A stretch of 64,000 nt of DNA from an uncultured archaeon (GCA_964619405.1 CAZUCF010000001.1:33633-97632), one strand, 5' to 3'; shown: positions 19,759 to 36,174, counted from the stretch's first letter. The notes: generated by a model not told the origin, from the sequence alone. A program made the numbers and translations.

Positions 19759-22746
19759 ATGGTTACTGATTACTTGGAAGACTTATTAAACGAGGCAAAA
19801 AAAGATTCTAATAATAAAGAAGTGATTAAGGAAAACACACAAAAAATTAGTGAAGAAGAAGTTGCTAAAGATGTTAAAAAAGAGGATTTAAAAAAATTTG
19901 AGGAAAAACTTTCGCAAAACGAACTAGAACAAAAAATTGAACCAAACGACAAAAAAGAAAAAACAGAAGTAGAAAAAGAGTTAGAATCACAAAAAAAAAT
20001 TGAGTTAAAAAAATATGGAAAAACAACTATTTACGAAGTTCCAGGCAAAGCAATGAAATATTATTTTGTACCAACATTAAGACCAACATCAGCTGAAAGA
20101 AAAATAATTAATACTATAAAAGAAGCAACAACAAGACTAATTAGTATTGCACCATTCAGAATAAGAAATAATGATGAAAGAAGAATAATTTACAAGCAAA
20201 AAGTTCTTGACATAATAAAAAATAACCCATCATTAAACATTCCACCAACAAGAGTATCATTTTATGCTGACGCGGTAGTAAGAGAAATGGTTGGGTACGG
20301 TTTAATTGATGATTTAATAAAAGACGATAATTTAGAAGAAATAATGATTGTTGGCTCCAAAAAACCTGTTTTTGTTTTCCACAGAGAATATGAAATGATG
20401 CAAACTAATATAGAATTTTTTTCAGAACAAGAAATTGAGGATTTAGTAAACAAAATCGCAAGAGAAGTTGGACGAAGAGTAGATGTGTCAGCACCACTAC
20501 TTGACGCGAGATTATCTGATGGTAGCAGAATAAATGCTACAATACCACCAGCAAGTATTAGTGGTGGAACACTAACAATAAGAAAATTTAGGGAAGACCC
20601 TTACTCAATAATAGATTTAGTAAGAATGAATACTTTGAATAGTGAGGCAGCAGCGTTCCTATGGATGTGCGTTGATGGACTAGGAGTAAAACCAGCAAAC
20701 ATGCTGATTAGTGGTGGTACTGGCTCAGGAAAAACAACTCTTTTGAATGTGCTAGCATCATTCATACCAGAAAGAGAAAGAATAGTAACAATAGAAGACA
20801 CGGCAGAATTAAACCTACCCTTAAAACACTGGATTAGATTAGAAGCAAGGCCACCTGGATTAGAAGGAACAGGCGAACTAAAAATGGATATTCTAACAAA
20901 AAATTCTTTGAGAATGCGACCAGACAGAATAATTGTTGGAGAAGTAAGACACGAAGAAGCATTCACATTATTCACTGCTATCAACACGGGGCATGATGGA
21001 GCAATAATTGGTGAAAGCTTAATACAATTATCAAACGGAGAATTAATTGAAGCACAAAAACTATGTGAAAAATATTTTGATAAACCAATAAAAGAAAATG
21101 ATTACGAATTTGTTGAAATTAACGACGAATTATTTGTTCCAAGTTTAAACAAAGAAACATTAAAAATAGAAGACAAAAAAATAAATAGGATTTGGAGAAA
21201 AAAGAATGAAAAAAAATTGTTAAAAATAAAATTGCGTTCTGGAAAAGAATTAATCCTAACTAAAGATCATCCAATTTACAAAATTTGCAATGGAATAAGT
21301 GAAATAAATGCAGAAAATGTTTTAATTGGGGATTATATTGCCACACCAACAACAATAAAAATGAAATCTGAAGAAAGTATTGAGTGCCCATATTATTTAG
21401 GATTAGTTTATGGTGATGGGCACATAGGACAAGAAAGTATTGAATTTACAAACAAAGAAATTTCTCTAATAAATGCTTTTGAAGAAGAAGCAAAACAAAT
21501 AACAAAAAATAAAATTAAAAGAAAATTAAAAAATGCATATTATAGTTCATTTTATGATAAAAAAGCAGTGCGAAACCTAAACATAAATTATGAAATACCA
21601 ATTGGAAATAAAACAAAAACATTTGTACTAGGAAAAGAAATCATGCAAGGAAACGAAAAAGATTTAAGTGAATTAATAAAAGGGTTATTTGATTGCGAAT
21701 CACATGTTAACTTGCATTCAAACAGCATACAATTTTCTACATCAAATTTTGATTTAGCAAAAAAACTACCTTTAATATTACAAAGATTCGGAATACAATC
21801 CTCAACAAACATTCAAGAAAAAGATGGTAAAGGAAATATTGGACCATATTACAGAATATCAATTTATGGAAAAGACAATTTAGAAAAATACTCTCAAAAA
21901 ATTGGTTACAAGCATTCAGCAAAAAAAGAAGCATTAAAAGAATTAATTAAAAAATCAAAAAACTCTTTAGATTTGTTTCCAAACATGCAAAATGTTTTAA
22001 GGGATTTGAGAACAGAAAATAATTTAACACAAAAAGAATTATCTTTTTTAATTGGTAATAATACACCAAGTGTTTCATTATCACACGAAATAGGGACAAG
22101 AGCACCAACAAGAGAAATGTTAGAAAAAATTTGTAAACAAACCAATGGTAAAACAAAAAAACAATTAGAAATATTAACAAAATCAGATATTAGGTTTGAA
22201 AAAATAATTTCAATAAGCGAATATAATTACGATGGTTTTGTTTATGATTTAACTGTTGAAGACAACCATAATTACATTGCTAACGGAGTAATAATAAGTA
22301 ATTGCCTTGGAACAGTACACGCGAATTCTCCAGAAGAAACAATAGTAAGAGTGACTAGCCCGCCAATGAATGTACCAAACATAATGCTCTCAGGATTAGA
22401 CATGATAATAGTTGAACACAGGTACCACGACAGAAAAAAAGGAACTATTAGAAGAATAAGTGAAATAGCAGAAGTATATGGGGGCCTAGAAGGAAAACCA
22501 AAAACACAAACATTGTTTCAAAGAGATGCTGTAAAAGATTATTTGGAAAGAACAATGATTGATAGCATGTACTTAAAACAATTAAGAACTTTTACTGGTT
22601 TGTCAAAAGATAATTTGGATGCTGAGTTAAAACTAAGACAACAATTCATAGAAAATCTTGCTGAAAAAAATTTGAGAGAATTAAAAGATGTTAGTAAGAA
22701 AGCACATGACTTCATTAACAAAAGAAATCTAGGTGAAAAAATATGA
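19759..22746 (+). CDS. KlbA/TadA/FlaI-family secretion ATPase of the type IV pilus system, interrupted by an intein
   Basis: The extein carries the Walker A GGTGSGKTT, IEDTAELNL, the Asp box and His box NTGHDG...CLGTVHANS. A 434-aa insertion lies between TGHDG and CLGTVHANS. The assembled extein is about 562 aa. Confidence 0.85.
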   Translation: MVTDYLEDLLNEAKKDSNNKEVIKENTQKISEEEVAKDVKKEDLKKFEEKLSQNELEQKIEPNDKKEKTEVEKELESQKKIELKKYGKTTIYEVPGKAMKYYFVPTLRPTSAERKIINTIKEATTRLISIAPFRIRNNDERRIIYKQKVLDIIKNNPSLNIPPTRVSFYADAVVREMVGYGLIDDLIKDDNLEEIMIVGSKKPVFVFHREYEMMQTNIEFFSEQEIEDLVNKIAREVGRRVDVSAPLLDARLSDGSRINATIPPASISGGTLTIRKFREDPYSIIDLVRMNTLNSEAAAFLWMCVDGLGVKPANMLISGGTGSGKTTLLNVLASFIPERERIVTIEDTAELNLPLKHWIRLEARPPGLEGTGELKMDILTKNSLRMRPDRIIVGEVRHEEAFTLFTAINTGHDGAIIGESLIQLSNGELIEAQKLCEKYFDKPIKENDYEFVEINDELFVPSLNKETLKIEDKKINRIWRKKNEKKLLKIKLRSGKELILTKDHPIYKICNGISEINAENVLIGDYIATPTTIKMKSEESIECPYYLGLVYGDGHIGQESIEFTNKEISLINAFEEEAKQITKNKIKRKLKNAYYSSFYDKKAVRNLNINYEIPIGNKTKTFVLGKEIMQGNEKDLSELIKGLFDCESHVNLHSNSIQFSTSNFDLAKKLPLILQRFGIQSSTNIQEKDGKGNIGPYYRISIYGKDNLEKYSQKIGYKHSAKKEALKELIKKSKNSLDLFPNMQNVLRDLRTENNLTQKELSFLIGNNTPSVSLSHEIGTRAPTREMLEKICKQTNGKTKKQLEILTKSDIRFEKIISISEYNYDGFVYDLTVEDNHNYIANGVIISNCLGTVHANSPEETIVRVTSPPMNVPNIMLSGLDMIIVEHRYHDRKKGTIRRISEIAEVYGGLEGKPKTQTLFQRDAVKDYLERTMIDSMYLKQLRTFTGLSKDNLDAELKLRQQFIENLAEKNLRELKDVSKKAHDFINKRNLGEKI
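21001..22302 (+). mobile_element. intein (KlbA-type, Ala1...Asn, +1 Cys) with LAGLIDADG homing endonuclease and HTH
   Basis: The intein starts AIIGESLIQLSNGE immediately after the TGHDG extein motif and ends YDLTVEDNHNYIANGVIISN before CLGTVHANS. Internal LAGLIDADG blocks are LGLVYGDGHIG and IKGLFDCESHV. The paralogous ATPase at 43314..44837 has the uninterrupted NNGHSGCLGTIHANN. Confidence 0.8.
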
Positions 22747-23837
22747 GTGACTTAAAAATTAATGAAGAAGAAGTAAACCAAATAGTAGAAACAATGAAAA
22801 AAAAATATAGGCAAGAAGGAATTGAAATTGAAGATGTTGATAACAGTTTAAAAGAATTAAGAGGAATAATTGCTGATAATTCTTACTCAAAAATTGATTT
22901 GGAAAATGAAGAGGACTTAGAACAATTTGGCTCAAATTTGGTAAAACAATTAGGAAACATTTATGTTAAATTAAAAAAAATACTTAAACCAATAAAAAAT
23001 ATTTTGAAAGAATTTCCTTTGAGTGAGGAAATAGGTTACTATCTTTACTCAGCAAACATGCGTTACTCAGCAAACCAATATTTAGCATTAGCTAGCGCAA
23101 GTGGCTTTGTAGTAGCATTACTAACAATAATAATAATTTTTTTTATAGGCGTAATATCACAAGATTTGTTATTCACAATTATTGTTCCAATAAGTGCTGG
23201 TTTTGTAGCATGGTTATTTTCAACAATAATAATATTATATTTACCAAAAAAGTTTGCAAAAACTAGGGGCGCAAAAATTTCTGTTGAACTACCATTTGCT
23301 TTAAGACACATGTCAACAGAACTCAAAGCAGGAATAGGCTTGTACAAAACAATACAAGCAATAGCAATAAATGATTACGGTGTCCTAAGCGAAGAATTTT
23401 CAAGGACAATAAATGAGATAGAAGAAGGCTCTGATACATCAACAGCATTAAAACACACTGCCTTAAGAACACAAAGTTTACCATTAAGAAAAGCTATTAA
23501 CCACATACTAAGAGCAATGCGTATTGGTGGGAACCTTTCAGATACCATGAATGACATAGCAGAAGATGTTTCAACCGAAATGAAAAACAGGATAGGAATT
23601 TTTTCCCAAAAAATGAATTTTTTTTCAGTAATATTTATTTTCATTGGAATTGTTTTACCAGTAGCAATAATGATTCTTGGTTCAATAAGAAATTCCCCGT
23701 TAGCAGCAACAGGAGAAGATTTATTCAAAAACATTCCACTAACACCCGAAATAATGTTTTTGATTTACATAATAGGAATGCCAATAATTTTTTTGTTAAT
23801 GATTTTTATGGTTTACAACATGCAACCAAAAATGTGA
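22743..23837 (+). CDS. pilus assembly platform protein, T2SS-F domain (TadB/FlaJ-like)
   Basis: The T2SSF-like region ELKAGIGLYKTIQAIA...LRAMRIGGNLSDTMNDIAEDV is flanked by TM helices. The ORF overlaps the ATPase stop (ATGA). Confidence 0.75.
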   Translation: MSDLKINEEEVNQIVETMKKKYRQEGIEIEDVDNSLKELRGIIADNSYSKIDLENEEDLEQFGSNLVKQLGNIYVKLKKILKPIKNILKEFPLSEEIGYYLYSANMRYSANQYLALASASGFVVALLTIIIIFFIGVISQDLLFTIIVPISAGFVAWLFSTIIILYLPKKFAKTRGAKISVELPFALRHMSTELKAGIGLYKTIQAIAINDYGVLSEEFSRTINEIEEGSDTSTALKHTALRTQSLPLRKAINHILRAMRIGGNLSDTMNDIAEDVSTEMKNRIGIFSQKMNFFSVIFIFIGIVLPVAIMILGSIRNSPLAATGEDLFKNIPLTPEIMFLIYIIGMPIIFLLMIFMVYNMQPKM

Positions 23838-23841
23838 TTTT

Positions 23842-24750
23842 ATGGATTTGATTACAAAATACAATGATTGGGTAAAATTTTCTAAGTTACCTTATAACGC
23901 AATTGTTTGGGTTAGCCTAGCAATAGGAACAACAATACTAGTAGCAATTGTTTCAATAATACTAAATTTTTTCATACTACAAGAAATGACTTTATTACCC
24001 ATTGCTTTTACAACAGCAACACTAGTACTAATGCTTGGTTACCCTTACATGAAAAAAGAATCAATCATTGATACAATAGAATACAATTTTAGTGACGCTC
24101 TAAAACAAATGGCTGATACTTTAAAAGCAGGAGACACTTACGAAAGCGCTTTAAGAGAAGTAGTTAACTCTGGTTATGGTAGATTATCAGACGAAATGCA
24201 AATCGCTTTAATAAGATTAGAAGAAGGAGAAAACATTGACACATCATTAAGGGGCTTCGCAGAAAGAATTGATTCAAGACTAATAAAAAGAACTATAACA
24301 ATATTATTAGACTCAATAAAAACTGGTGCTAGTCTAGCAAATATTTTAGAGGACATTGCAGACGATGTTAGAGAATCATACAGATTAAAAGAAGAAAGAA
24401 AAGCGAACACAACAATGCAATTCATGTTCATGATTGCTGCAAGCGGTTTTATAACACCGCTAATCTTTGGGGAAATAACAGCAATAATGAATTTGTTTGG
24501 AAGAATAACTGTAACACAATTACTCGCAGGACAAGCAATAACTGGAAACACTGCAACAAACTTTGTTTTCATTCTAATACAAGCTTATCTAATAATAGAG
24601 GTCATTGCTTCAGGAGTAATGATGGCTATAATAAGAGAAGGAAAATTTGGAAAAAGTATTATTTACATTCCCCTCTTACTAATAATAGTTTTCTTAACCT
24701 ATTATCTTACAAGTTATGTAATAAGTTTAATGTTACTAGGTGTATTTTAA
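23842..24750 (+). CDS. second pilus platform protein, T2SS-F domain (TadC-like)
   Basis: The T2SSF region is LKQMADTLKAGDTYESALREVV...LDSIKTGASLANILEDIADDV. There are TM helices at both ends. Confidence 0.75.
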   Translation: MDLITKYNDWVKFSKLPYNAIVWVSLAIGTTILVAIVSIILNFFILQEMTLLPIAFTTATLVLMLGYPYMKKESIIDTIEYNFSDALKQMADTLKAGDTYESALREVVNSGYGRLSDEMQIALIRLEEGENIDTSLRGFAERIDSRLIKRTITILLDSIKTGASLANILEDIADDVRESYRLKEERKANTTMQFMFMIAASGFITPLIFGEITAIMNLFGRITVTQLLAGQAITGNTATNFVFILIQAYLIIEVIASGVMMAIIREGKFGKSIIYIPLLLIIVFLTYYLTSYVISLMLLGVF

Positions 24751-24890
24751 TGGAAGAAAAAGCACAAGTGAGTTTAGAGTACTTGCTAATAATAATTGGG
24801 GCAATAATAGTTGTTACAACAGTCGCAATGTACATTAAGGCAACAGCACAATCAACAACACAAGCAATACAAGAACAAGGAAAAAACTAG
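24750..24890 (+). CDS. Flp-like minor/major pilin, 46 aa, class III signal peptide
   Basis: The ATG overlaps the TAA of the upstream gene. Translation is MEEKAQVSLEYLLIIIGAIIVVTTVAMYIKATAQSTTQAIQEQGKN. The KAQ|VSLEYLLII segment matches the archaeal prepilin signal. The ORF is not in the track because it is shorter than 60 aa. Confidence 0.7.
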   Translation: MEEKAQVSLEYLLIIIGAIIVVTTVAMYIKATAQSTTQAIQEQGKN

Positions 24891-24904
24891 TTCAAAGTGA
24901 ACCT

Positions 24905-25012
24905 CCCCACACTAAAGTGTGGGGCTTCTGCTGGTTTACAGCAGAAGTATTCACTTTTCCGTCAACGGAAAAGAAATCTCAAACTCCAACGTAAACGTTG
25001 AAGATTTCTTTT
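24905..25012 (+). other. GC-rich cluster of four consecutive stem-loops (structured RNA element / 3' UTR)
   Basis: The hairpins are ccccacac-taaa-gtgtgggg (24905..24924), cttctgctg-gttta-cagcagaag (24925..24947) and cttttccg-tcaa-cggaaaag (24954..24973). A fourth, compound hairpin is gaaatct..caacg-taaa-cgttg..agatttc (24973..25008), followed by TTTT. Confidence 0.5.
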
Positions 25013-25110
25013 GGGTTGATTAAAAAAAAACTTTAAAACTATTAAACCAAAAAAAAAACTTGTTAAAGAATAGGTTTAAAAATAATAAAAACTTTAATAG
25101 AATAGGTAAT

Positions 25111-25132
25111 TTTTATTAAATTGAACGGAGGG
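25111..25132 (+). promoter_or_regulatory. A/T-rich TATA-like element plus GGAGG ribosome-binding site upstream of the pilin gene
   Basis: ttttattaaa (25111..25120) is followed by ggaggg at 25127..25132, which lies 8 nt upstream of the ATG at 25140. Confidence 0.35.
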
Positions 25133-25139
25133 AAATGAA

Positions 25140-25424
25140 ATGGATAAAAAAGGACAAGGAGCAATTGAATACTTATTAATCATTGGAGCAGCAATACTTG
25201 TTGTAGCAGTAGTAATAATAGCACTAGTTAGTGTTACAGGAGCAGCAACAGATGATACAACAGGAGAAGAGGCTCAAGCAGCACAACTATTACAAAGTTG
25301 TATTGCATCATGCGGAACAATTGGCGGAGACTGGAATTATAATGATAATTTGTGTTATTCAATAGCACAACCAACTAACTGGCCAATCAAATGTTACGAC
25401 TATAACGCAATAGCAGTTAACTAA
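25140..25424 (+). CDS. archaeal type IV pilin, class III signal peptide, Cys-rich C-domain
   Basis: Begins MDKKGQGAIEYLLIIGAAILVV. The C-terminal domain has six Cys. Confidence 0.8.
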   Translation: MDKKGQGAIEYLLIIGAAILVVAVVIIALVSVTGAATDDTTGEEAQAAQLLQSCIASCGTIGGDWNYNDNLCYSIAQPTNWPIKCYDYNAIAVN

Positions 25425-25444
25425 ACTTAATTAAAGATTTGTTT

Positions 25445-25548: not shown

Positions 25549-28500
25549 ATGCAAAATGAAGAAAATTTAGCGCAAACAGCAATAGAGTACTTGCTAATAA
25601 TAGCAGGCGTAATTATTATTGTTACAATAATAGCTTTTTTTTCTAAGTCAATAATGCTAACCGCAACACAAACAATTGACGAGACAATAAACCTTGAAGA
25701 AGAAGTAAAAGTAACCGAAAACAAAATTTCGTTATACTATCCCAATAATACAACATATTTAACAGGAAAAATAATTTTTGCTTACGCGCCACAAAGCCCA
25801 ATTGAAATAAACTCGTGCAAATTAATAGTAAATGAAAAAGAAGAAGAAATTAATTTTAGTATTAGCAAAAACAAAATGAATATTTTTGAAAAAGATGCTA
25901 ATGATTTTCCAATAGGAAATCATTCTTGGAATATTGAGTGCGAAGACTCAAACAATGCTTTGTTCCAAGGAACACAAAAATATTTTACAATCCAAGAAGG
26001 AATCGTTGAACCAGAACAACCAATTGAACCACCACCATTACTATTTTCTGGCGGAGACGGAACAATAAACAACCCATACCAAATAACAAAAATAGAACAC
26101 TTAAACACAATAAGATACTACCCAGACAAAAATTTCATTCTAATGAATGATCTTGATTTTGAAAACAATTCTAATTACAATAACCCAATATACAAAAACT
26201 ATTTTATAACAAATGAAGGATGGAAATCAATAGGAATAACAAATTATTGTATTACAAATATTGTAAATCTTTATTGTAAGTATAATAGTAGTAAGACCAC
26301 TTGTGAAAATTCTTGTGATGGAAATTATATTGATGGAAACATATTCACTGGAAACTTTAACGGAAATAATCACACAATAAAAAATTTGTATTCAAACAAA
26401 CCACTGCATAATTACATAGGATTATTTGGAAGCACTAACAATTCACAAATAAAAAATTTGATTATAGAAGACGCAAACATAATTGGAAGAGATTACACAG
26501 GAGGAATAATAGGTTACGCAAACAACTCAATAATTAATAATATTAGTTTTGAAGGAATTATTTCAGGAAAAAATTATGTTGGCGGAATAATTGGAAGCGC
26601 AAACAATTCACAAATAAATATTTTAAAAAATACTAGTAATATAAACGCACAAGAAGTTGTTGGAGGAATAATAGGACAATCAGATCAACACACAATAATA
26701 ACAAACACACAAAACATTGGAAGCATAAATGGAATAACGGATGTTGGAGGAATAGCTGGAAGAGCACCCAATATTCAAAATTCTTTAAATTCAGGAGATA
26801 TCAATGGAACAGAAAACATTGGAGGAATAATGGGCCAATCAAACTCATTATATACTAATAATATAAAAAACACATACAACATTGGAACAATTAATGGCAA
26901 CACTAATGCAGGTGGTTTTGCCGGTAAATTAAATTCAACAATTGGAATAACCAATTCTGGTTGGTGGACGGGAACAACAACACAATCAATCGGAACACAC
27001 CCTGATTATGAACTAACTTATAATGAAATAAATAAAACAAATTTTTACCCAACAGAACATTTAATTTACACCAATGGAAATGAACCATGGGACTTTGATA
27101 ATATTTGGTTAGAAAGAGACAACAATTACCCAATACTAAGAATAATAAATGAATCAGAAACACCAACACCCCCACAACAAGAACTACCACCAGTACAATT
27201 CGCTGGCGGAGACGGAACAATAAACAACCCATACCAAATAACAAAAATAGAACACTTAAACACAATAAGATACTACCCAGACAAAAATTTCATTCTAATG
27301 AATGACCTTGATTTTGAAAATGACAATGATTACAACAACTCAGAAAACAAAAATTATTTTATAACAAACGAAGGATGGAGCTCAATAGGAAAAAAAACTT
27401 ATTGTGAAACAAGCAGCACCAACACAATTTGTAAAAATAATCAAACAACTTGTGAATTCACATGCAATGGAATATGGTTTGAAGAAAATTTATTCACAGG
27501 AAATTTTAACGGAAATTACAAAAAAATAAATAATTTGTATTCAAACAAACCATTACACGATTACACAGGATTATTTGGAAGCATTAAAAATTCTGAAATA
27601 AAAAATTTGATTATAGAAGACGCAAACATAATTGGAAGAGATAACACAGGTGGAATAATAGGCGATGCAAACCTCGCAAAAATCAATAATGTAAGTTTTA
27701 AAGGAATTATTTCAGGAAAAAATAATGTGGGCGGAATAACAGGAAATATAAGTAGCTCAAATATTGATAATACAAAAAATTTTGGAAAAATAAATGCACA
27801 AGAAAATGTAGGAGGAATAACCGGGAATGTAAAAAACACTTCAATAAACAATGCATTTAATACTCAAGAAATAAACGGAACAACAAATGTCGGAGGAATA
27901 ACCGGGAACCATTCTGGTGGATTAATTACCAATGTAATAAATATTGGCCAAATTAATGGAACAATAAATGTTGGAGGAATAGCTGGAAGAGCACCCAATA
28001 TTCAAAATTCTTTAAATTCAGGAGATATCAATGGAACAGAAAACATTGGAGGAATAATGGGCCAATCAAACTCATTATATACTAATAATATAAAAAACAC
28101 ATACAACATTGGAACAATTAATGGCAACACTAATGCAGGTGGTTTTGCCGGTAAATTAAATTCAACAATTGGAATAACCAATTCTGGTTGGTGGACGGGA
28201 ACAACAACACAATCAATCGGAACACACCCTGATTATGAACTAACTTATAATGAAATAAATAAAACAAATTTTTACCCAAAAGAACACCTAATTTACACAG
28301 CTCAATCACCAATCTGGGATTTTGAAAACACTTGGTTAGAAAGAGACAACAATTACCCAATACTAAAAACAATGAATGAAATAGAACGCTTACCCCAGTT
28401 CCCAAATGGCGATGGAACAATAAACAACCCATACCAAATAACAAAAGTAGAACACTTAAACACAATAAGATACTATTTAAACTCAAATTTTGTTTTAATG

Positions 28501-29598
28501 AATGACCTAGACTTTGAAAACAATAATAATTATATTAATCCTGAAAACAAAAATGATTTTATATTTGGAGAAGGTTGGGATCCTATTGGAAAAACAAATT
28601 ATTGCATAACAAGCAATACTACTACAAATTGTAATGACTGGAAAAGTGTTTGTGAAAATACTTGCAAAGGAATTTGGATTGAAACAAATTTATTCACAGG
28701 AAATTTTAACGGAAATAATAATACAATAAAAAATTTGTATTCAAACAAACCACAACACAATTACACTGGATTATTTGGAAGCATATCTAATTCAGAAATA
28801 AAAAATTTGATTATAGAAGACGCAAACATAATTGGAAAAGAATTTATAGGTGGAATAATTGGTAGCACAAATTATTCAATAATAAATAATGCAAGTTTTG
28901 AAGGAAACATTTCAGGAAAAAATTATGTTGGCGGAATAATTGGTTACGCAAATAACTCTGACATAAATAACACAAAAAATTATGGAAAAATAAATGCACA
29001 AGACAGAGTAGGTGGAATAATAGGATCGGTCGTACGCAGTAAAATAAACAATTCTTTTAATAATAACAAAATATCTGGTGCAAACTCTATTGGCGGAATA
29101 ATAGGCTTTTCACAAGGAGCCACAACAAAATACACAAATGTAATAAATATTGGAAGCATAAATGGGCAAACTAATGTTGGCGGAATAATTGGTTACGATT
29201 ATTATTCAGAAATAAAAAACTCTTTAAATGCAGGAGATATCAATGGAACAAGCCAAATAGGAGGAATAACCGGCCAAACAATTAATCAAACAAACAAAAT
29301 AGATAATTCATATAATATTGGTTTGATTACAGGTACTGAAGATATTGGGGGAATAATAGGAAACATTTATTCAACAACATCATTAACAATAACCAATTCA
29401 GGTTGGTGGACAGGAACAACAACACAAGCAATCGGAAACAACACAACTATTGTGTTCAGTTATAATGAAACAAACAAAACAAATTTTTACCCAAAAGAAC
29501 ATTTAATTTACACCAATGGAAATGAACCATGGGACTTTGATAATATTTGGTTAGAAAGAGACAACAATTACCCAATACTAAGAATAATGAATGAATAA
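25549..29598 (+). CDS. giant (~1350 aa) pilin-fused surface adhesin with three tandem ~400-aa beta-helix/GLUG-like repeat modules
   Basis: The likely true start is M24 of the track ORF (MQNEENLAQTAIEYLLIIAGVIIIV), a class III signal peptide. Three modules follow, each starting GGDGTINNPYQITKIEHLNTIRYY and containing many (N)xVGGI(I/T)G repeats about 19 aa apart. Confidence 0.8.
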   Translation: MQNEENLAQTAIEYLLIIAGVIIIVTIIAFFSKSIMLTATQTIDETINLEEEVKVTENKISLYYPNNTTYLTGKIIFAYAPQSPIEINSCKLIVNEKEEEINFSISKNKMNIFEKDANDFPIGNHSWNIECEDSNNALFQGTQKYFTIQEGIVEPEQPIEPPPLLFSGGDGTINNPYQITKIEHLNTIRYYPDKNFILMNDLDFENNSNYNNPIYKNYFITNEGWKSIGITNYCITNIVNLYCKYNSSKTTCENSCDGNYIDGNIFTGNFNGNNHTIKNLYSNKPLHNYIGLFGSTNNSQIKNLIIEDANIIGRDYTGGIIGYANNSIINNISFEGIISGKNYVGGIIGSANNSQINILKNTSNINAQEVVGGIIGQSDQHTIITNTQNIGSINGITDVGGIAGRAPNIQNSLNSGDINGTENIGGIMGQSNSLYTNNIKNTYNIGTINGNTNAGGFAGKLNSTIGITNSGWWTGTTTQSIGTHPDYELTYNEINKTNFYPTEHLIYTNGNEPWDFDNIWLERDNNYPILRIINESETPTPPQQELPPVQFAGGDGTINNPYQITKIEHLNTIRYYPDKNFILMNDLDFENDNDYNNSENKNYFITNEGWSSIGKKTYCETSSTNTICKNNQTTCEFTCNGIWFEENLFTGNFNGNYKKINNLYSNKPLHDYTGLFGSIKNSEIKNLIIEDANIIGRDNTGGIIGDANLAKINNVSFKGIISGKNNVGGITGNISSSNIDNTKNFGKINAQENVGGITGNVKNTSINNAFNTQEINGTTNVGGITGNHSGGLITNVINIGQINGTINVGGIAGRAPNIQNSLNSGDINGTENIGGIMGQSNSLYTNNIKNTYNIGTINGNTNAGGFAGKLNSTIGITNSGWWTGTTTQSIGTHPDYELTYNEINKTNFYPKEHLIYTAQSPIWDFENTWLERDNNYPILKTMNEIERLPQFPNGDGTINNPYQITKVEHLNTIRYYLNSNFVLMNDLDFENNNNYINPENKNDFIFGEGWDPIGKTNYCITSNTTTNCNDWKSVCENTCKGIWIETNLFTGNFNGNNNTIKNLYSNKPQHNYTGLFGSISNSEIKNLIIEDANIIGKEFIGGIIGSTNYSIINNASFEGNISGKNYVGGIIGYANNSDINNTKNYGKINAQDRVGGIIGSVVRSKINNSFNNNKISGANSIGGIIGFSQGATTKYTNVINIGSINGQTNVGGIIGYDYYSEIKNSLNAGDINGTSQIGGITGQTINQTNKIDNSYNIGLITGTEDIGGIIGNIYSTTSLTITNSGWWTGTTTQAIGNNTTIVFSYNETNKTNFYPKEHLIYTNGNEPWDFDNIWLERDNNYPILRIMNE
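26050..29595 (+). repeat. three tandem intragenic repeat units (26050..27204, 27205..28404, 28405..29595) with perfectly identical sub-segments
   Basis: Perfect DNA identities are 26741..27052 = 27968..28279 (312 bp), 26048..26150 = 27203..27305 (103 bp) and 27054..27146 = 29496..29588 (93 bp). Confidence 0.85.
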
Positions 29599-29633: not shown

Positions 29634-29921
29634 ATGATTAAAATGACAAAAAAATATTTTTCAGAAAAAAAAGCACAAGGTGCAATAGAATACTTATTGA
29701 TTATTGGAGCAGCAATACTAGTAGTAGCAATAGTATCAATATCAATGGTAGGCGTAACAACAGGGGGCCTAGAAAAAACAGATGCTGATACAATAAGAGA
29801 CACAACACTAATACTAGAATGTCAAAAAGAATGCATTCAACAAGGTTACAGTTGGAACGGAATTAATTGTGAAGTAGAAACCAGTGAAAAATGCAATGAA
29901 TTTGGACCTAACCCAAATTAA
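29634..29921 (+). CDS. archaeal type IV pilin, class III signal peptide
   Basis: Contains EKKAQGAIEYLLIIGAAILVV and a C-terminal Cys-containing domain. The start is 29634 or the ATG at 29643. Confidence 0.75.
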   Translation: MIKMTKKYFSEKKAQGAIEYLLIIGAAILVVAIVSISMVGVTTGGLEKTDADTIRDTTLILECQKECIQQGYSWNGINCEVETSEKCNEFGPNPN

Positions 29922-29970: not shown

Positions 29971-30261
29971 ATGAATAATAACAAGAGCAATAATAGAGGA
30001 CAAACCGCAATAGAATACTTATTGATTATTGGAGCAGCAGTACTACTAGTAGCAATAGTAATAATTTTTATTTCACAAGCAATTGCAACTGGTTCAGACA
30101 CTGGTGGGGAAAACACTTACCAATATTTGTGCGTAACACTTGATTCAAACACATTGGATTGCGGTTGTTATTTAGGAGAAACCAATAGAGGCGGAGCAAC
30201 TAATGACTTATGTTGTGCAAAACCCCAAAGTATTTTACGCTCAAAATGGACTTGTGGTTAA
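29971..30261 (+). CDS. archaeal type IV pilin, class III signal peptide
   Basis: Begins MNNNKSNNRGQTAIEYLLIIGAAVLLV. The C-terminus is Cys-rich. Confidence 0.75.
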   Translation: MNNNKSNNRGQTAIEYLLIIGAAVLLVAIVIIFISQAIATGSDTGGENTYQYLCVTLDSNTLDCGCYLGETNRGGATNDLCCAKPQSILRSKWTCG

Positions 30262-30262
30262 A

Positions 30263-30454
30263 TTGAATAAAAAAAATCTTTTTGAAGAAGAAAAAGCACA
30301 AGTTGCTTTCGAGTATTTGTTAACAGCAGTATTTGGAATAATATTAACAATAGGAACAGCCTTAATATTAGAAACATTAAGACAACTAGCATTAAAAGCG
30401 CAAACCGATTTTTTGAATGAACGAACAAGAGTAATAGAAAATCTTTTACAATAA
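30263..30454 (+). CDS. Flp-like short pilin, class III signal peptide
   Basis: A probable TTG start at 30263 lies right after the upstream stop. The N-terminus reads NKKNLFEEEKAQVAFEYLLTAVFGIIL. The longer track ORF (from 30203) overlaps the previous gene. Confidence 0.6.
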   Translation: MNKKNLFEEEKAQVAFEYLLTAVFGIILTIGTALILETLRQLALKAQTDFLNERTRVIENLLQ

Positions 30455-30672: not shown

Positions 30673-31767
30673 ATGTTTTTTCTCACAGCAATAATAATTT
30701 CTTTGATTGGTTTGCTTGGCGCAACATACACTGATTTAACAGAAAGAATTGTTCCAAACAAACTAAATTTTGGTTTAATTATAACAGGACTATTAATATA
30801 TTCAATTCAATCAATATACATGCAAAATATTTTCCCCATAATTTATTCTATTTTTGGGTTGTGTTTTGGATTCTTTTTTGGTTGGACACTATGGAAACTA
30901 GGTGTTTTTGCTGGAGGAGATGTAAAATTATTCATGGCATTAGGCACATTAAATCCTTTCACCCCAGCATTAATCAAAGTTGGTTTTTTAACAAATATTA
31001 GTTACCCAATAATGCCAATAAGTTTATTCATTTATTCTTTACTTGCTTTTCTACCATACGGAATAATAGTAATAATACACAAATTATTGAAAAACAAAAA
31101 AGAAAGAAAAAAAATATTTTTGGAATTAAAACAAAAAACAATACTCGCGACACACACCTCAATATTTATTTCAGGAGCATATGTTATTACAACAATAATT
31201 ACAACAAACAATTTTTTGAATTTGATAATTATTTTTACAGCACTAATAATATGGAATTTTTTAAAACAAAGAAAAAAATATTTAACTATTATTTTTGCAT
31301 TAATTGGATTAATAATAAATTATTTGACAATGATTGAATACTTGATAATACTAATAATACTTTTTGTTGGATTATATGGTTTGATAAGAATATTATTTTT
31401 AATGAAACCATTACTCTCAAAAAAAATATTTATTAATGATTTAGAAGAAGGCATGATTCCAAGCAAAACATTGATGTGGAAAGGCAAAAAAGTTATTGAA
31501 AAAAAACAATTAAGTCTTAAAGAACTAATACGAAAAATGAAAAACAAAGAAATAGTTTCAAGCGAAAAAGAAATTATTTCTTCGATGAAAGCAAGGGGCC
31601 TGACAATTGAAGAAATTAATACATTAAAAAAGTTATCCAAAAAAGGATTAATATCAAAAACACTTCTTGTAAAAGATTCAATCCCTTTTGTCCCAACAAT
31701 ATTATTAGGATATATTTTGTGCTTGATTTTAGGAGATTTTATAATCCAGATAGTGTTATTCATATAA
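30673..31767 (+). CDS. prepilin/preflagellin peptidase (PibD/FlaK, A24 family) with C-terminal extension
   Basis: The first catalytic Asp is in GATYTDLTERIVPNKL and the second in AGGDVKLFMALG. The protein is polytopic. Confidence 0.8.
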   Translation: MFFLTAIIISLIGLLGATYTDLTERIVPNKLNFGLIITGLLIYSIQSIYMQNIFPIIYSIFGLCFGFFFGWTLWKLGVFAGGDVKLFMALGTLNPFTPALIKVGFLTNISYPIMPISLFIYSLLAFLPYGIIVIIHKLLKNKKERKKIFLELKQKTILATHTSIFISGAYVITTIITTNNFLNLIIIFTALIIWNFLKQRKKYLTIIFALIGLIINYLTMIEYLIILIILFVGLYGLIRILFLMKPLLSKKIFINDLEEGMIPSKTLMWKGKKVIEKKQLSLKELIRKMKNKEIVSSEKEIISSMKARGLTIEEINTLKKLSKKGLISKTLLVKDSIPFVPTILLGYILCLILGDFIIQIVLFI

Positions 31768-31776
31768 GGTGAAAAA

Positions 31777-32229
31777 ATGCGAGGACAAGCAACCATAGAA
31801 TTTATTTTTATAATATTAATAGTAATTGTTTACATTTTTAGTGTAACAAAACCATTAATAGAAAACGCGCAAGGAGTAATTGAAGATATTGAAAACATTT
31901 CTAAAACAAATTACGCAACACAACAAATAGTTAACACAACAAATAAAATAGCTTTACTAGGAACAAATTCAAAAGAAACTATTACATTATTTATTCCAAA
32001 CAATTCTAAAATAATTTGTCAAGAAAATGGTTTTAGTTACCAAATTGAAATAAACAAAACAGGAAACAACCCAACTATCTTACTTTGCCCACAAAATATT
32101 TGTGAAAAACGTTTTGAAATACTTGAAGGATTTACAATTAACTGTGAAGAAGACCTATTTGGATACGGAATAAAAAAAATAGCAATAGAAAAAATTGAAA
32201 AAAATAAAATAAAAATAAATAATGGGTGA
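31777..32229 (+). CDS. pilin-like protein, class III signal peptide
   Basis: Begins MRGQATIEFIFIILIVIV. Confidence 0.65.
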   Translation: MRGQATIEFIFIILIVIVYIFSVTKPLIENAQGVIEDIENISKTNYATQQIVNTTNKIALLGTNSKETITLFIPNNSKIICQENGFSYQIEINKTGNNPTILLCPQNICEKRFEILEGFTINCEEDLFGYGIKKIAIEKIEKNKIKINNG

Positions 32230-32563
32230 ATTTTTGAGAGGCCAAGTATCTTTTGAAGTATTATTACTTATTCTACTAGTTGTCATAATAGCAATAACCA
32301 TGACTAATTTATTCATACAAACAAATGACACTACTAATGCTTACTTGTTAATAAGAAACGAGTTCTTGTTACAAACAAATGTAAAAAATGAAGAAATAAT
32401 ATTAGAACAAATTTATTTCGTACAAGAAGATACACCCACTTTTTACATAAAAACAATTCCAATTATAATAAATTCTAACGACATAAATCTTACATTAATT
32501 GAAGACAAGGTTAACAAAATGACAAATTTCAAAAACACTAAAATAAAAATTAATGCAGAATAA
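32222..32563 (+). CDS. pilin-like protein, class III signal peptide
   Basis: Begins MGEFLRGQVSFEVLLLILLVVII. Confidence 0.65.
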   Translation: MGEFLRGQVSFEVLLLILLVVIIAITMTNLFIQTNDTTNAYLLIRNEFLLQTNVKNEEIILEQIYFVQEDTPTFYIKTIPIIINSNDINLTLIEDKVNKMTNFKNTKIKINAE

Positions 32564-32742
32564 AAATTAATACAGAATAAAAAAATAAGTAATATACTAT
32601 AAAAAAACAAATCTAATACATTTAAATTTAATCAAAAACTAACTATATAATTTAATTTATTTAACAAAACTTCAATATAAAAAAGACGACAATTAACGAA
32701 AAAGTGCTTTGGTTTTTTTAAACTTAATTATATAAAAAAATT

Positions 32743-33069
32743 ATGAATGAAAGAAATATTACCCAAATTTGTATCATCATATCAATAATTGGTTTAATTT
32801 TTTTTGTTTTTTGTTACGAAGAAGAATTCCCAGAAAAAACAATAAGTGAAATGATTTCAAATATTGGAACAAAAGGAAAACTAATTGGAAAAGTAGAATA
32901 CATAATAAATAATGAGCCATTAATTTTTATTCTCCAAAACGAAGAAAAAATAAAAGTTTTTTACCCAAAAAAAATTGAGTTAAAAAAAAATGATATTGTA
33001 GAAGTATTCGGAGAAACCACTATTTACAATAACGAAATTGAGATTTTTGCTCAAAGGGTAACAAAATGA
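32743..33069 (+). CDS. small membrane-anchored protein, possible OB-fold
   Basis: An N-terminal TM anchor is followed by a beta-rich ~80-aa domain. No motif is recognised. Confidence 0.4.
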   Translation: MNERNITQICIIISIIGLIFFVFCYEEEFPEKTISEMISNIGTKGKLIGKVEYIINNEPLIFILQNEEKIKVFYPKKIELKKNDIVEVFGETTIYNNEIEIFAQRVTK

Positions 33070-34244
33070 TTACTTACTTGTTACTTGGAATAATAGCTGG
33101 CACAACCGCAGGATTAATTCCTGGCATACACACAAACAATATAACACTAATAGTTTTCCTAACACCACTCTTTGGAAACAATGCAACAGTTTTTGTTTTG
33201 AGCATGATAACAACACAAAGCTTTGTTGACTTCATACCAACAATATTTATTGGAGCGGCAAGCGAAAACTCTTTTGAAGGAATATTGCCTGGACACAAAA
33301 TGTTCATGCAAGGAAAAGCACACGAAGCAATAATGCTAACTGTTTTTGGAGGAATAATAGCAACAATAATTTCAATACTTGTGTTTCCGTTTTTCATCAA
33401 AAGCATTGAATTTTATTCCACAAATTTTGAAATAATAATTCCAATGATATTAATTTTTTCAATAATAACACTAATACTCACTGAAAACACTAAACAAAAA
33501 AAATTAATTGCTATTTTTGTAATAATTGTTGCTACAACACAAGGAATATTATTCAAAGACCAAATTTTCCCATTAATAAGTGGTTATTTTGGTATTTCAA
33601 CATTAATTAATTCCACAATAAAAAAACAAATTTCACAAAAACAGGAAACTGAATTTGAAATACACAACGATAAAATAAAAGACGCTTTAACAGGAATTAT
33701 CGGAGGAGCAATAGTTGCTTTTGTGCCAGGAATAGGAAATAATTTAGCTGCCGCCATAATTAGATTGTTCAGACAAAAAATAAGAACGAAAAATTATTTG
33801 GTTTTATTAGGAAGTATAAACACTAGTAATTTTATTTTTTCTTTCCCAGTATTATTATTTTTATCAAAAACAAGGAACGGTGCAATGATTTTTTTAAAAG
33901 AAAGAATTCTTATTACAGAACAAACTATTTTGATTGGTTGCGCTACCATACTAATTTCTTCAGGAATAGCAGGAATCATAACAATAATTATTTCAAAAAA
34001 AATGTCCAAAAACAGTAATAATTCAAAATTTATAAAACTACAACAAAACAAAATCATCGAAAAAATAATTATTATACTTATTACAATACTTGTTTTATTC
34101 TTTAACGGGTTAATTGGTTTAATAGCATTAATTTTTTCAACAGCATTAGGATTAATAACAATAAACACTAAAACAAAAAGAAGTAATTGCCTAGCATTTT
34201 TGATAATACCAGTCCTATTTTTCTACCTTTACCAATTAATATAA
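33066..34244 (+). CDS. TctA-family (DUF112) polytopic membrane protein
   Basis: The N-terminal GIIAGTTAGLIPGIHTNN and the ENSFEGILPGHKMFMQGKAHEAIMLTVFGGIIA region resemble the TctA GxxPG / PGE...DG..mar.G..g.AL motifs. Confidence 0.5.
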   Translation: MITYLLLGIIAGTTAGLIPGIHTNNITLIVFLTPLFGNNATVFVLSMITTQSFVDFIPTIFIGAASENSFEGILPGHKMFMQGKAHEAIMLTVFGGIIATIISILVFPFFIKSIEFYSTNFEIIIPMILIFSIITLILTENTKQKKLIAIFVIIVATTQGILFKDQIFPLISGYFGISTLINSTIKKQISQKQETEFEIHNDKIKDALTGIIGGAIVAFVPGIGNNLAAAIIRLFRQKIRTKNYLVLLGSINTSNFIFSFPVLLFLSKTRNGAMIFLKERILITEQTILIGCATILISSGIAGIITIIISKKMSKNSNNSKFIKLQQNKIIEKIIIILITILVLFFNGLIGLIALIFSTALGLITINTKTKRSNCLAFLIIPVLFFYLYQLI

Positions 34245-34246
34245 TT

Positions 34247-34612
34247 ATGTGGCACATAAAAAAAAGTTTGTTAGAAGATATAATCCAATCATCAAAAAAT
34301 TATTTACCTGATGAATTCCTATGCTTTTTAGGAAGCAATACACAAAAACAAGAAATAATAGAAATAATTTTTTTACCCAATCAAAGTGATGAATCATCAA
34401 CCAGCATAAACATGAATGCTTTCCCAAGCGATGCAACAATAATAGGTAGCGCTCACTCACACCCAAATAGCAGTATTTTGCCAAGCAATGCAGACAAAAA
34501 ATTCTTTAAAAGATTCAAAATTAATATAATAATAGGGTTAAATAAATTTGAAACCAGAATAGGGTTTTATAATGAAAAAACCAACAAGATAGAAGTGAAA
34601 ATAATTGATTAG
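34247..34612 (+). CDS. JAMM/MPN+ metalloprotease domain protein
   Basis: The JAMM motif HSHPNSSILPSNADKK (H-x-H-x7-S-x2-D) is present. The start is taken at the internal ATG (MWHIKK). Confidence 0.6.
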   Translation: MWHIKKSLLEDIIQSSKNYLPDEFLCFLGSNTQKQEIIEIIFLPNQSDESSTSINMNAFPSDATIIGSAHSHPNSSILPSNADKKFFKRFKINIIIGLNKFETRIGFYNEKTNKIEVKIID

Positions 34613-34636
34613 ACAAAGTTAAAAAGAAAAAAAGAG

Positions 34637-35029
34637 TTGAATTATTACATGAAAGGACAAGTAAGTTTAGATTTGTTACTAACAATACTAGCATTAGTAA
34701 TATTTATTAGCACAACAACAATGATAATTAACGAAATAAAACAAAACAATGAACTAATCATATTAGATAATAAATTAAAAATAATTGCAAATGATTACTC
34801 GTCATTAATAACAACAAGTGAATTATTAATTGATTTTAATTATGAAATAAGAAAAAATTTAGATGTTGTTATTTTTAAAGGGAAAAAAACTATTCCAGAG
34901 TTAACAACCAATAATGAAAAACTTATTTTAAATATTAGTGAATACAAACGAACAATTGAAACAAATATTCCAACAAACAATAAAACAATTAAACAAGAAG
35001 AACAATTTTTGGTGATCACAAATGAATAA
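34637..35029 (+). CDS. pilin-like protein, class III signal peptide
   Basis: Begins MKGQVSLDLLLTILALVIFI. Confidence 0.65.
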   Translation: MNYYMKGQVSLDLLLTILALVIFISTTTMIINEIKQNNELIILDNKLKIIANDYSSLITTSELLIDFNYEIRKNLDVVIFKGKKTIPELTTNNEKLILNISEYKRTIETNIPTNNKTIKQEEQFLVITNE

Positions 35030-35498
35030 AGGTCAAATTTTTTCACTTGATTTTTTGCTAGCAACAATAATTATGATAATATTTATTGGAACAACAATAA
35101 ATGCTTTTGAAACTAGAACATATTTAATAAAAGAAGAAATTAATTCAGATATTCTAATACAAAACAGCAATTCAGCTTTTATCGCACTAACTAATGGAAT
35201 TTATTCTTGTAAAACTGAAAATTATATTAGTTTACCATTTACAATAAATGAAACCGTTTTAAATTCAAAAAATATTGGTGAATTGAAAGCAAGCATTGGT
35301 TTGCAAGACAAAAACATCTCATTAGAAATAAATGGAACAAAAGTGTTTGATGAAATTAATCAAAAAGAAACAATTATTGCAATTGAAAACGAAGTTCTTT
35401 TTTGTAATAATATAATAGAACTTAAAGATTTAGAAGATTGCTTAAATGGAAATTGTATTTTTGAAAAGAAAAAAATTATTTTAATGGTGGAAAAATGA
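35022..35498 (+). CDS. pilin-like protein, class III signal peptide
   Basis: Begins MNKGQIFSLDFLLATIIMIIFI. Confidence 0.65.
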   Translation: MNKGQIFSLDFLLATIIMIIFIGTTINAFETRTYLIKEEINSDILIQNSNSAFIALTNGIYSCKTENYISLPFTINETVLNSKNIGELKASIGLQDKNISLEINGTKVFDEINQKETIIAIENEVLFCNNIIELKDLEDCLNGNCIFEKKKIILMVEK

Positions 35499-35770
35499 AA
35501 GGCTTTCTTTTTTCTATTGAAGCATTAATAACAATAATATTATTGATTTCAACTATTACCATCATATGGACTTATTTTGATTATAATTATAATACAAACT
35601 TTTTAACAACAAACTCAAAAATTAATACAATCAACGCATTTTATTTTAATGATTATTCTAAATCAACCGCGAATGATTCAAATTTGAATATTAATTTTTG
35701 TTCCAAAATAATAATTTATAATAATCAAAAAGAATTTGAGGAAAAAACTTTTTGCGAGGGAATAAAATGA
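35495..35770 (+). CDS. pilin-like protein, class III signal peptide
   Basis: Begins MKGFLFSIEALITIILLIS. Confidence 0.55.
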   Translation: MKGFLFSIEALITIILLISTITIIWTYFDYNYNTNFLTTNSKINTINAFYFNDYSKSTANDSNLNINFCSKIIIYNNQKEFEEKTFCEGIK

Positions 35771-36174
35771 ATAAAAAAGGTTTTGCAACAGTGCTTGTCG
35801 GGATAAGCATTTTTTTTGTAACAATAATAATGCTTAGTAGCAATTATTACCAAGAAGAAAGAATAGATTACTCGCAAATAATAATTGACTCTAAAATAAA
35901 AATAACTAATTATGAAATTGTTTTGAATCAAGCAATACAAGATTGTAATTGGCAAAAACCTAATAATGAAATACAAAATTGTGTTAATTTAAAAGCAAAT
36001 AATTTAAAACAAGAAATTTTTGATGAAATGAATAAGTGTGAACAAGAAGATTTTATTTTTAATGACATAAATTCACTAATTGGGAAAATAAATTGTCACA
36101 ATGACATAAATATTAACAAAACATTTTTTTCAATAGATTTAAACAAAAATATTATTCTCAAAAGGTACAAGTGA
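35752..36174 (+). CDS. pilin-like protein, class III signal peptide
   Basis: Begins MNKKGFATVLVGISIFFVTIIML. The start is probably the ATG at 35767. Confidence 0.55.
   Translation: MRGNKMNKKGFATVLVGISIFFVTIIMLSSNYYQEERIDYSQIIIDSKIKITNYEIVLNQAIQDCNWQKPNNEIQNCVNLKANNLKQEIFDEMNKCEQEDFIFNDINSLIGKINCHNDININKTFFSIDLNKNIILKRYK

Follow-up and report, generated by a model that had tools for sequence, protein, structure and literature searches.

What is a type IV pilus locus for when a membrane transporter and an OB-fold protein are encoded among its pilin genes? This question is raised by positions 19759-36174 of a 64,000-nucleotide stretch of DNA from an uncultured archaeon (GCA_964619405.1 CAZUCF010000001.1:33633-97632), the whole of which is termed the window. 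The region comprises 19 open reading frames (ORFs), all on the plus strand and tightly packed, with the genes of ThrRS (17873-19630) and ABCE1 (36208-37959) on either side, in a genome with a GC content of ~27%. It encodes a secretion ATPase, two platform proteins with a single domain each, a prepilin peptidase that is EppA-like, 12 proteins with class III signal peptides and three embedded non-pilus proteins, namely an OB fold anchored in the membrane, a transporter of TctA-like type and a JAMM protease. The cluster is a real and fairly standard type IV pilus locus of a tiny DPANN archaeon, and by its content it is very probably an archaeal System 1 (Epd/Tad-like) locus, a kind already known in DPANN. 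What is new here is a standard System 1 chassis that harbours, embedded within it, a candidate pair for DNA import, as well as a mobile KlbA intein and a unique GLUG pilin. That the locus as a whole represents the System 1 pilus machine of an Iainarchaeota-type DPANN archaeon coupled to DNA import is a reading that we hold with slightly less than even confidence.

The archaeal type IV filament (TFF) System 1, or Epd-like system, consists of one ATPase, two platform genes, many pilins, a peptidase of its own and a main pilin that has no globular head (2026 bioRxiv survey), and has already been reported in methanogens, Thermococcales and DPANN (2026 bioRxiv survey; see also PMC6393860). The present locus possesses an ATPase of the T2SSE/FlaI/TadA superfamily and two separate platform genes with one T2SSF domain each. 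A preliminary description, made from the sequence alone, had read the region as a contiguous one-strand locus for an archaeal Tad-like pilus with a split platform, a Flp-like pilin, minor pilins, a pilin-adhesin and its own peptidase, and this core reading is supported by our analysis, in which Pfam was run on all 19 locus proteins. A FlaFind-like six-frame scan over the entire window returned 12 candidates, 11 of which lie inside the locus, every one on the plus strand, whereas the sole hit outside (8327-8920, minus strand) looks spurious. The giant pilin escaped the scan solely through a Leu instead of Lys/Arg at position -2 (LA/Q; the slash marks the cleavage site). Together they make exactly 12 prepilin-like genes, starting at 24750, 25140, 25549, 29634, 29971, 30263, 31777, 32222, 34649, 35022, 35495 and 35767, so 12 class III signal peptides are clustered in the locus, compared to one elsewhere in the window. 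The earlier estimate of at least 12 was thus correct, although its itemised list added up to 13, as there is just one additional short pilin rather than two. The Pfam Class_IIIsignal model scores above threshold in five of the small proteins and below threshold in two others.

Further analysis of these signal peptides revealed a consistent cleavage motif. The residue at +1 is Gln in 10 of the 12 prepilins and Phe in the other two, and a Gly or Ala at -1, the point on which the preliminary description had staked its case, is conserved in the orthologues of all eight pilin groups checked, with Gln or Phe at +1. The pilin-like ORFs are also conserved in homologous loci, where the gene order is kept across ~20 species-level genomes. 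The probable true starts of five genes were revised to ATG 25549 for the giant pilin, TTG 30263 for the second short pilin, ATG 34247 for the JAMM protease, ATG 34649 for pC1 and ATG 35767 for pC4. The six further class III genes proposed previously are all among the 12, with the starts of two of them moved from 34637 to 34649 and from 35752 to 35767.

The pilus assembly ATPase (KlbA/TadA/FlaI-like; 19759-22746, plus strand) is encoded as 995 residues, of which ~561 are left after splicing, and matches Pfam T2SSE at 1.3e-36, in agreement with the KlbA/TadA-like assignment made before. Its matches to the NCBIfam FlaI and TadA models are under the cut-off, and a weak match to the bindosome BasE model was also obtained. 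The extra length, overlooked in the preliminary description, is a KlbA-type intein of 434 residues (21001-22302, plus strand; ATPase residues 415-848), which matches Pfam Intein_splicing, LAGLIDADG_3 and HTH_3 and thus carries a LAGLIDADG homing endonuclease and a helix-turn-helix (HTH) domain. The junction was mapped on intein-less orthologues, which are 553-650 residues long. The intein interrupts the sequence NTGHDG/CLGTVHAN of a KlbA-family ATPase, starts with Ala and ends in ...ISN/C, that is, with a C-terminal Asn followed by Cys at +1, as is typical of KlbA-type inteins. An Ala at the first position implies the class 2 route of intein splicing. The best PDB match is the MJ0781 KlbA intein (2jmz, E = 5.4e-31), which has an identical junction. 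Since a conserved motif is interrupted by the insert, the ATPase probably has no activity before splicing, judging from the sequence. ATPases of 1,027-1,089 residues are found in four relatives, including the complete AR10 genome (L018; the others are L017, L019 and L047), and alignment confirmed an insert at the same site for AR10 alone among them. The ATPase of the closest relative (L009) contains no intein, and such a patchy distribution among relatives fits a mobile intein.

Downstream of the ATPase, two platform genes encode proteins with one T2SSF domain each, as had been described. Platform protein 1 (TadB/EpdJ-like; 22743-23837, plus strand; Pfam 9e-21) overlaps the ATPase gene by 4 nt, and platform protein 2 (TadC/EpdK-like; 23842-24750, plus strand; Pfam 9e-17) matches the C-terminal half of the ArlJ model. 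The prepilin peptidase (30673-31767, plus strand) matches Pfam Peptidase_A24, Arc_PepC and Arc_PepC_II, and has an Asp within the sequence ...TYTDL... in addition to a GGD motif. It aligns over its full length with the NCBIfam EppA equivalog, at 43.5 bits, far under the 450-bit cut-off. The earlier identification as a prepilin peptidase therefore stands, whereas the enzyme is nearer to EppA than to PibD/FlaK, and this EppA-like alignment fits the Gln at +1 in the prepilins. A second T2SSE ATPase of 507 residues, stand-alone and intein-free, is encoded ~7 kb downstream of the locus (43314-44837, minus strand). It has no adjacent platform gene, its position is kept in the nearer relatives, and it might be an additional motor for the same pilus.

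The pilins fall into several types that differ in length and cleavage motif. The Flp-like short pilin of 46 residues (24750-24890, plus strand; MEEKA/QVSLEYLL...) has no globular domain and a Class_IIIsignal score of 28.7 bits, above the cut-off; its orthologues in 14 loci keep the motif [KR]A/Q.S.E, in line with its previous designation. The second short, all-helical pilin (30263-30454, plus strand) has ~63 residues when read from the TTG at 30263, within an ORF that opens at 30203. It has no Pfam hit, reads EEKA/QVAFEYLLT, and is the most strongly conserved of the small pilins, with orthologues of 56-60 residues in 19 loci that share [KR]A/QVSFEYLL. The three Cys-rich pilins of the preliminary description were recovered with Class_IIIsignal scores above the cut-off, and comprise 94 residues (25140-25424, plus strand; KKG/QGAIEYLL, four Cys), 95 residues (29634-29921, plus strand; KKA/QGAIEYLL, four Cys) and 96 residues (29971-30261, plus strand; NRG/QTAIEYLL, six Cys), respectively.

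Behind the peptidase gene follow two blocks of pilin-like genes, termed pB and pC. In the first block, pB1 (31777-32229, plus strand; 150 residues, MRG/QATIEF) has orthologues in 20 loci that keep [KR]G/Q..IEF, and pB2 (32222-32563, plus strand; 113 residues, LRG/QVSFE; Class_IIIsignal 25.6 bits) has 14 orthologues, the motif shared by both groups being [KR]G/Q..[IF]E. The second block encodes four proteins. The motif of pC1 (34649-35029, plus strand; 126 residues, MKG/QVSLD) is kept as G/Q[IV]S.D in 15 orthologues, and that of pC2 (35022-35498, plus strand; 158 residues, NKG/QIFSLD) as G/QIFS.D in 19 orthologues. The other two have Phe at +1: orthologues of pC3 (35495-35770, plus strand; 91 residues, MKG/FLFSIE) keep G/F.FS.E, and those of pC4 (35767-36174, plus strand; 135 residues, KKG/FATVL) keep [KR]G/F. 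When 1.84 billion proteins were searched exhaustively with pC2, just 77 cluster representatives came up, nearly all of ~160 residues and most aligned over most of their length, which indicates a small, real and lineage-restricted family.

Directly 3' of the 46-residue pilin gene lies a GC-rich multi-hairpin element (24894-25020, plus strand), with an RNA minimum free energy of -53.9 kcal/mol (z = -7.2 against shuffles). It has no Rfam match, and its first hairpin, the sole part searched, has no second copy in the window. A conserved RNA was considered and rejected, as the element is absent from 12 of 12 related loci checked in addition to lacking a match in Rfam; it could act as a terminator or stabiliser specific to this lineage, or represent a small insertion.

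The largest subunit is a giant modular pilin of 1,349 residues, counted from the ATG (25549-29598, plus strand), which comprises a pilin-like N-terminus (MQNEENLA/QTAIEYLL...; Class_IIIsignal 19.2 bits, below the cut-off), a domain of ~130 residues and three tandem GLUG repeats of 385-400 residues. The repeats share 66-77% mutual identity, contain 20 GG[IF]xG turns and have four Cys each, and 40 N-x-S/T sequons for N-glycosylation are spread over the whole protein. Pfam reports Peptidase_M26_N at 3.7e-9, and the repeated GLUG turns are those of GLUG-motif surface proteins (PF07581/PF05342). A search with the repeat found 482 homologues; most of the 120 listed are annotated with PF07581, the GLUG family, and among the matches listed the nearest are at most 42% identical. 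Those with names are mostly bacterial surface proteins (with type IX secretion system (T9SS) sorting domains, flagellin fusions or Zmp-type proteases), together with a few from Thermoplasmatota. No orthologue of the giant pilin is present in any of the 80 related loci, and on sequence grounds it joins a pilin N-terminus to GLUG repeats in a fusion specific to this lineage, with extra Cys-rich pilin paralogues alongside.

The relatives carry different modules on different pilins. In L009 the orthologue of pB2 (7659-9575, plus strand) has 638 residues with seven DUF285 (BspA-like) repeats, and in L011 the orthologue of pC2 (12000-13046, plus strand) has 348 residues with a ConA-like lectin domain. 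These modules indicate that the subunits are surface-exposed, and such swapping supports the earlier idea of a complex minor-pilin or tip assembly. As judged from these sequences, the locus is a conserved chassis that displays exchangeable adhesins, with species grafting different modules onto different pilins.

Between the pB and pC blocks sit the OB-like, TctA-like and JAMM proteins, whose interspersed positions had been noted correctly. The OB-fold protein of 108 residues (32743-33069, plus strand) has no Pfam hit of its own; its AlphaFold2 model, with a mean predicted local distance difference test (pLDDT) score of 91.5, consists of a transmembrane (TM) helix at residues 3-24 and a five-stranded OB fold. 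Structural similarity search using Foldseek revealed as the top match a Pyrococcus abyssi RPA subunit bound to single-stranded DNA (8aas_C, E = 7.5e-6), the next matches being the OB folds with which LysRS and AspRS bind anticodons, and homologues of the protein bear the nucleic-acid-type OB domains PF01336/PF13742. A profile search with the family gave 20 hits, all of them DPANN-type or unnamed metagenomic proteins. The flank after the TM helix is acidic (50 Asp/Glu against 21 Lys/Arg), and this composition weakly suggests that the OB domain faces the outside of the cell. From the model, the protein is a candidate extracellular receptor for DNA or oligonucleotides, or a candidate tethered binding partner of TctA.

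The OB gene overlaps by 4 nt the gene of the TctA-like membrane transporter (33066-34244, plus strand; 392 residues), which matches Pfam TctA (PF01970) over its full length at 7e-34, gave an AlphaFold2 model with a pLDDT of 85.8, and has neither TctB nor TctC among its neighbours. It is a candidate importer of DNA or oligonucleotides. The third gene encodes a stand-alone JAMM/MPN+ metalloprotease of 121 residues (34247-34612, ORF from 34187, plus strand; Pfam Prok-JAB), with an intact JAMM motif, HSHPNSSILPSNAD (HxHx7Sx2D), that 29 of 31 orthologues retain. Spacings in the window's clade, over the seven genes that run from OB to pC4, are -4, +2, +36, -8, -4 and -4 nt. In four loci, genes of the IF-2B family and of a class II aldolase lie upstream of OB; they were considered as a hint of nucleotide salvage and rejected, since they look like MtnA/MtnB, a pair that we take to belong to methionine salvage. 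A protein of 119 residues, with an N-terminal TM helix and a PF10107 domain (an endonuclease related to the archaeal Holliday junction resolvase), is encoded 3.4 kb downstream of the locus (39594-39953, minus strand) and is kept there in many relatives; such a membrane-anchored nuclease could, from its domains, be relevant to DNA processing.

To compare the loci, the best 80 of more than 574 relatives were fetched with an alignment of six TctA sequences, and orthologues were mapped with phmmer and iterated hidden Markov models; all 80 are of DPANN type, with no euryarchaeal (Methanococcus) loci among them. TctA homologues carry the names Candidatus Diapherotrites or Iainarchaeum in their source records. 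The order ATPase, two platform genes, short pilin, Cys-rich pilins, short pilin, peptidase, pB1, pB2, OB, TctA, JAMM and pC1-4 is present in ~20 species-level genomes of Iainarchaeota (Diapherotrites), in which the identity of TctA to that of the window ranges from 79% down to 28%. Four genomes hold OB, TctA, JAMM, in some cases a phosphoglycerate mutase (iPGM), and pC1-4 together without an ATPase block within 10 kb upstream. In 39 loci, which come from several DPANN phyla, the OB gene stands directly upstream of TctA, so that the pair is conserved as an independent two-gene unit, whereas the JAMM gene follows TctA exclusively in Iainarchaeota-type loci.

Natural transformation in Methanococcus maripaludis requires both of two adjacent genes, MMJJ_13020 (OB fold, single TM helix) and MMJJ_13030 (TctA-like, 11 TM helices), in addition to the Epd pilus genes; in Methanoculleus thermophilus a TctA homologue is likewise essential, and Fonseca et al. 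2023 proposed TctA as the missing archaeal DNA transporter (PMC10133366). We read the OB and TctA proteins of the window, whose embedded genes are translationally coupled, as a candidate import pair and as putative counterparts of the M. maripaludis pair, which is needed for pilus-dependent transformation. The following sequence of events would result. The KlbA-type intein would splice out, upon which the ATPase would become active, and the EppA-like peptidase would cleave all 12 prepilins after the conserved Gly or Ala, before Gln or Phe. The ATPase and the two half-size platform proteins would polymerise the short, all-helical Flp-like pilins into a filament, to which the small Cys-rich pilins, the two pB and the four pC pilins would contribute as minor or tip subunits. 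Some of the subunits may serve as scaffolds for swappable adhesins, here the GLUG pilin, for binding to a host cell or a surface. At the cell surface the tethered OB domain would bind DNA or oligonucleotides captured by the pilus, and the TctA-like protein would import the bound material across the membrane, a functional parallel to bacterial ComEA/ComEC with the Com pilus. Gene content, domain identities, cleavage motifs, gene order, the OB fold and the identity of the intein are thus shown, whereas filament assembly, the choice of the major pilin, adhesin display and all of DNA import are deductions. We put the functional coupling of the pilus with OB/TctA a little under an even chance. A broader proposal, in which the locus forms a complete and self-contained archaeal DNA-uptake machine (Epd-like capture by the pilus, an OB receptor, a TctA-family translocase of DNA or oligonucleotides recruited from solute transport, and JAMM and the four co-transcribed pC pilins as dedicated parts), used by reduced-genome DPANN archaea for nucleotide scavenging and gene acquisition as a counterpart of competence in CPR (candidate phyla radiation) bacteria, appears doubtful to us.

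A serious contender, although it too falls clearly short of an even chance, is an ordinary pilus for adhesion or host attachment, in which OB, TctA and JAMM are passengers trapped in a syntenic block, the former two for instance as a transporter of carboxylates or other solutes with a tethered binding protein and the latter as a housekeeping, deubiquitinase-like protease. Many observations weigh on that side and against coupling to DNA import. Broad synteny in Iainarchaeota extends over the entire region, from ThrRS as far as ABCE1/Pelota/Hjc/Elp3, so the flanking housekeeping genes are conserved as well. An iPGM gene (archaeal ApgM or bacterial iPGM type, ~400-520 residues), absent in the window's clade, stands between JAMM and pC1 in ~15 of 25 Iainarchaeota-type loci (L016, L017, L019-L022, L026-L029, L043-L045, L047 and L062), and a PMT_2-like glycosyltransferase follows TctA in eight loci, six of them Iainarchaeota-type. 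With iPGM, GT2/GtrA and PMT_2-like genes filling the same intervals in relatives, the cluster tolerates passengers and embedding alone proves little. The earlier suggestion that the embedded genes are accessory components is accordingly strengthened by the experimental tie of OB/TctA to pilus-dependent DNA uptake in a methanogen and weakened by the unrelated genes that occupy the same place. Moreover, the linkage is confined to one lineage: among the best 80 of more than 574 relatives, OB-TctA is never beside pilus genes outside Iainarchaeota, and a search for independent lineages with pilin-like genes next to the pair found none that was consistent. In Woese-, Pace- and Nanoarchaeota the pair sits among replication and translation genes; in the non-Iainarchaeota DPANN loci (L030-L088) these are PolD (DP2 and a DP1-like subunit), Cdc6/Orc1, a DRG-type GTPase and ribosomal protein L35Ae, a neighbourhood suggesting that OB-TctA may lie near the replication origin region there.

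The proteins themselves are equivocal. The OB domain is net negative in 15 of 20 family members and its fold also resembles the non-nucleic-acid OB proteins YgiW and CcmE, while the TctA model shows the fold of a secondary (solute) transporter, and arCOG04469 TctA genes are mostly stand-alone and predicted to encode carboxylate transporters (2015 arCOG analysis, PMC5898192). The giant pilin, for its part, has no basic residue at -2 and a Pfam signal-peptide score beneath the cut-off. The resemblance to MMJJ_13020/13030 is one of architecture, not of compared sequences, and the locus tags of the M. maripaludis pair are far from the epd genes (PMC10133366), in contrast to the window, where the pair is inside the pilus locus. 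Three observations argue against mere passengers: the pilus and the OB/TctA pair are both required for the same process in M. maripaludis (PMC10133366), in the window's clade the genes share a strand and overlap, and OB-TctA-JAMM stays with the pC block even where the ATPase block is missing within 10 kb upstream. It is improbable, in our estimation, that OB, TctA and perhaps JAMM act in the biogenesis or function of the pilus itself, by precursor supply or flipping, pilin modification or control of extension and retraction, so that the transformation defect in Methanococcus would be secondary to a pilus defect. Such a role would agree with the position of the genes between pilin blocks, with the glycosyltransferase gene adjoining TctA in eight loci, and with a term search of PMC10133366 that found no mention of the piliation of the mutants, which also weighs against coupling to import; yet a TctA-family protein is part of no known type IV filament system, OB-TctA is widespread in DPANN loci without nearby pilus genes, and the 2016 and 2026 surveys of archaeal pili omit such components. 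In keeping with these surveys, we found no publication that links TctA or OB to pilus loci, nor, besides PMC10133366, any paper that pairs "TctA-like" with natural transformation. That there is no external pilus at all, and that a short pseudopilus or bindosome-like platform presents or secretes large surface proteins, is highly improbable. The class III signal peptides on many subunits, the weak BasE match of the ATPase and the proposal of binding proteins as functional additions to archaeal type IV machineries (2026 survey) speak for it. Against this, the content matches that of System 1/Epd loci, whose products in Methanococcus are real pili (2026 survey), short Flp-like pilins typically form filaments, and Pfam found no substrate-binding protein or ABC transporter genes among the 19 locus proteins.

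Some DPANN-type TctA contigs are filed under bacterial names (Falkowbacteria, Alphaproteobacteria), namely L047 (JAFCBY010000013.1) and L087 (DASPMU010000059.1), and several are titled 'uncultured Methanosarcinales'; L047 has the Iainarchaeota-type pilus locus in full. Mis-binning or mislabelling of contigs in metagenome-assembled genomes is the probable cause. Elsewhere in the window, a tRNA-Pro(CGG) (46660-46746, minus strand) of 87 nt, compared to 71 positions of the Rfam model, may contain an intron or insertion.

To our knowledge, archaea lack ComEC, and the sole candidates that we know of for carrying DNA across the archaeal membrane in transformation are OB and TctA, a pair identified in one methanogen through transposon mutagenesis. 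That a whole archaeal phylum places this pair in a type IV pilus locus, overlapping pilin genes, is independent but weak comparative evidence. The main interest of the locus is that the hypothesis of TctA as a DNA transporter becomes more testable, since it yields constructs with which to probe it: the OB ectodomain, the TctA protein and the four neighbouring pilins. It also shows how DPANN archaea diversify surface recognition, with GLUG repeats, BspA-like repeats and a ConA-like lectin on different pilin scaffolds in otherwise conserved loci. Should the link between the pilus and OB/TctA be merely historical, what is left is a well-annotated but ordinary System 1 locus.

Among known systems, the closest in content is the Epd locus of M. 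maripaludis, which also has one ATPase, two platform genes, a dedicated prepilin peptidase, EppA-type there and EppA-like in the window, for cleavage before Gln, many minor pilins, an adhesin-like member and a main pilin with no globular head. The window differs from it in having the short pilins inside the locus, two blocks of pilins after the peptidase, the embedded OB, TctA and JAMM genes, and the added GLUG pilin of 1,349 residues. Bacterial Tad/Flp systems, which probably derive from the archaeal Epd pilus (2026 bioRxiv survey), share the TadA-like ATPase, the split TadB/TadC-like platform, the very short Flp-like pilin and the A24 peptidase. However, the pilins of the window bear the archaeal Class_IIIsignal motif with Gln at +1, and no Pfam match to a secretin (RcpA/CpaC) or to TadZ, TadD or TadG-type components was found in any of the 19 proteins; without these the locus resembles Tad but is not a member.

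The embedded pair has the same arrangement as MMJJ_13020/13030, in which the gene for a small OB-fold protein with one TM helix lies directly upstream of TctA, itself of archaeal type, and TctB/TctC are absent, whereas in Iainarchaeota it is found within a pilus locus and is followed by the JAMM gene. The bacterial Com pilus with ComEA and ComEC offers an analogy only, in that a type IV filament is encoded together with an extracellular binding protein anchored in the membrane and a polytopic membrane importer. There is no homology: the locus proteins have no Pfam hits to the ComEC competence domain or to the ComEA helix-hairpin-helix domain, an OB fold stands in place of the latter, and TctA has a solute-transporter fold.

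The intein is allelic to that of Methanocaldococcus jannaschii KlbA (MJ0781; PDB 2jmz/2jnq), consistent with orthologous ATPases. They both reside in the same host family at the NTGHDG/ site, start with Ala and have close splicing blocks; however, the Methanocaldococcus KlbA intein is a mini-intein, compared to the 434-residue intein of the window with its LAGLIDADG endonuclease and HTH. Modular type IV pilins are known, for example PilB and PilC of Streptococcus sanguinis, and like the giant pilin they join a pilin N-terminus to a large adhesin module. We found no described archaeal pilin with GLUG repeats. In GLUG surface proteins elsewhere, the modules are fused to other display devices, such as T9SS sorting domains or flagellin, whereas here they are fused to a pilin.

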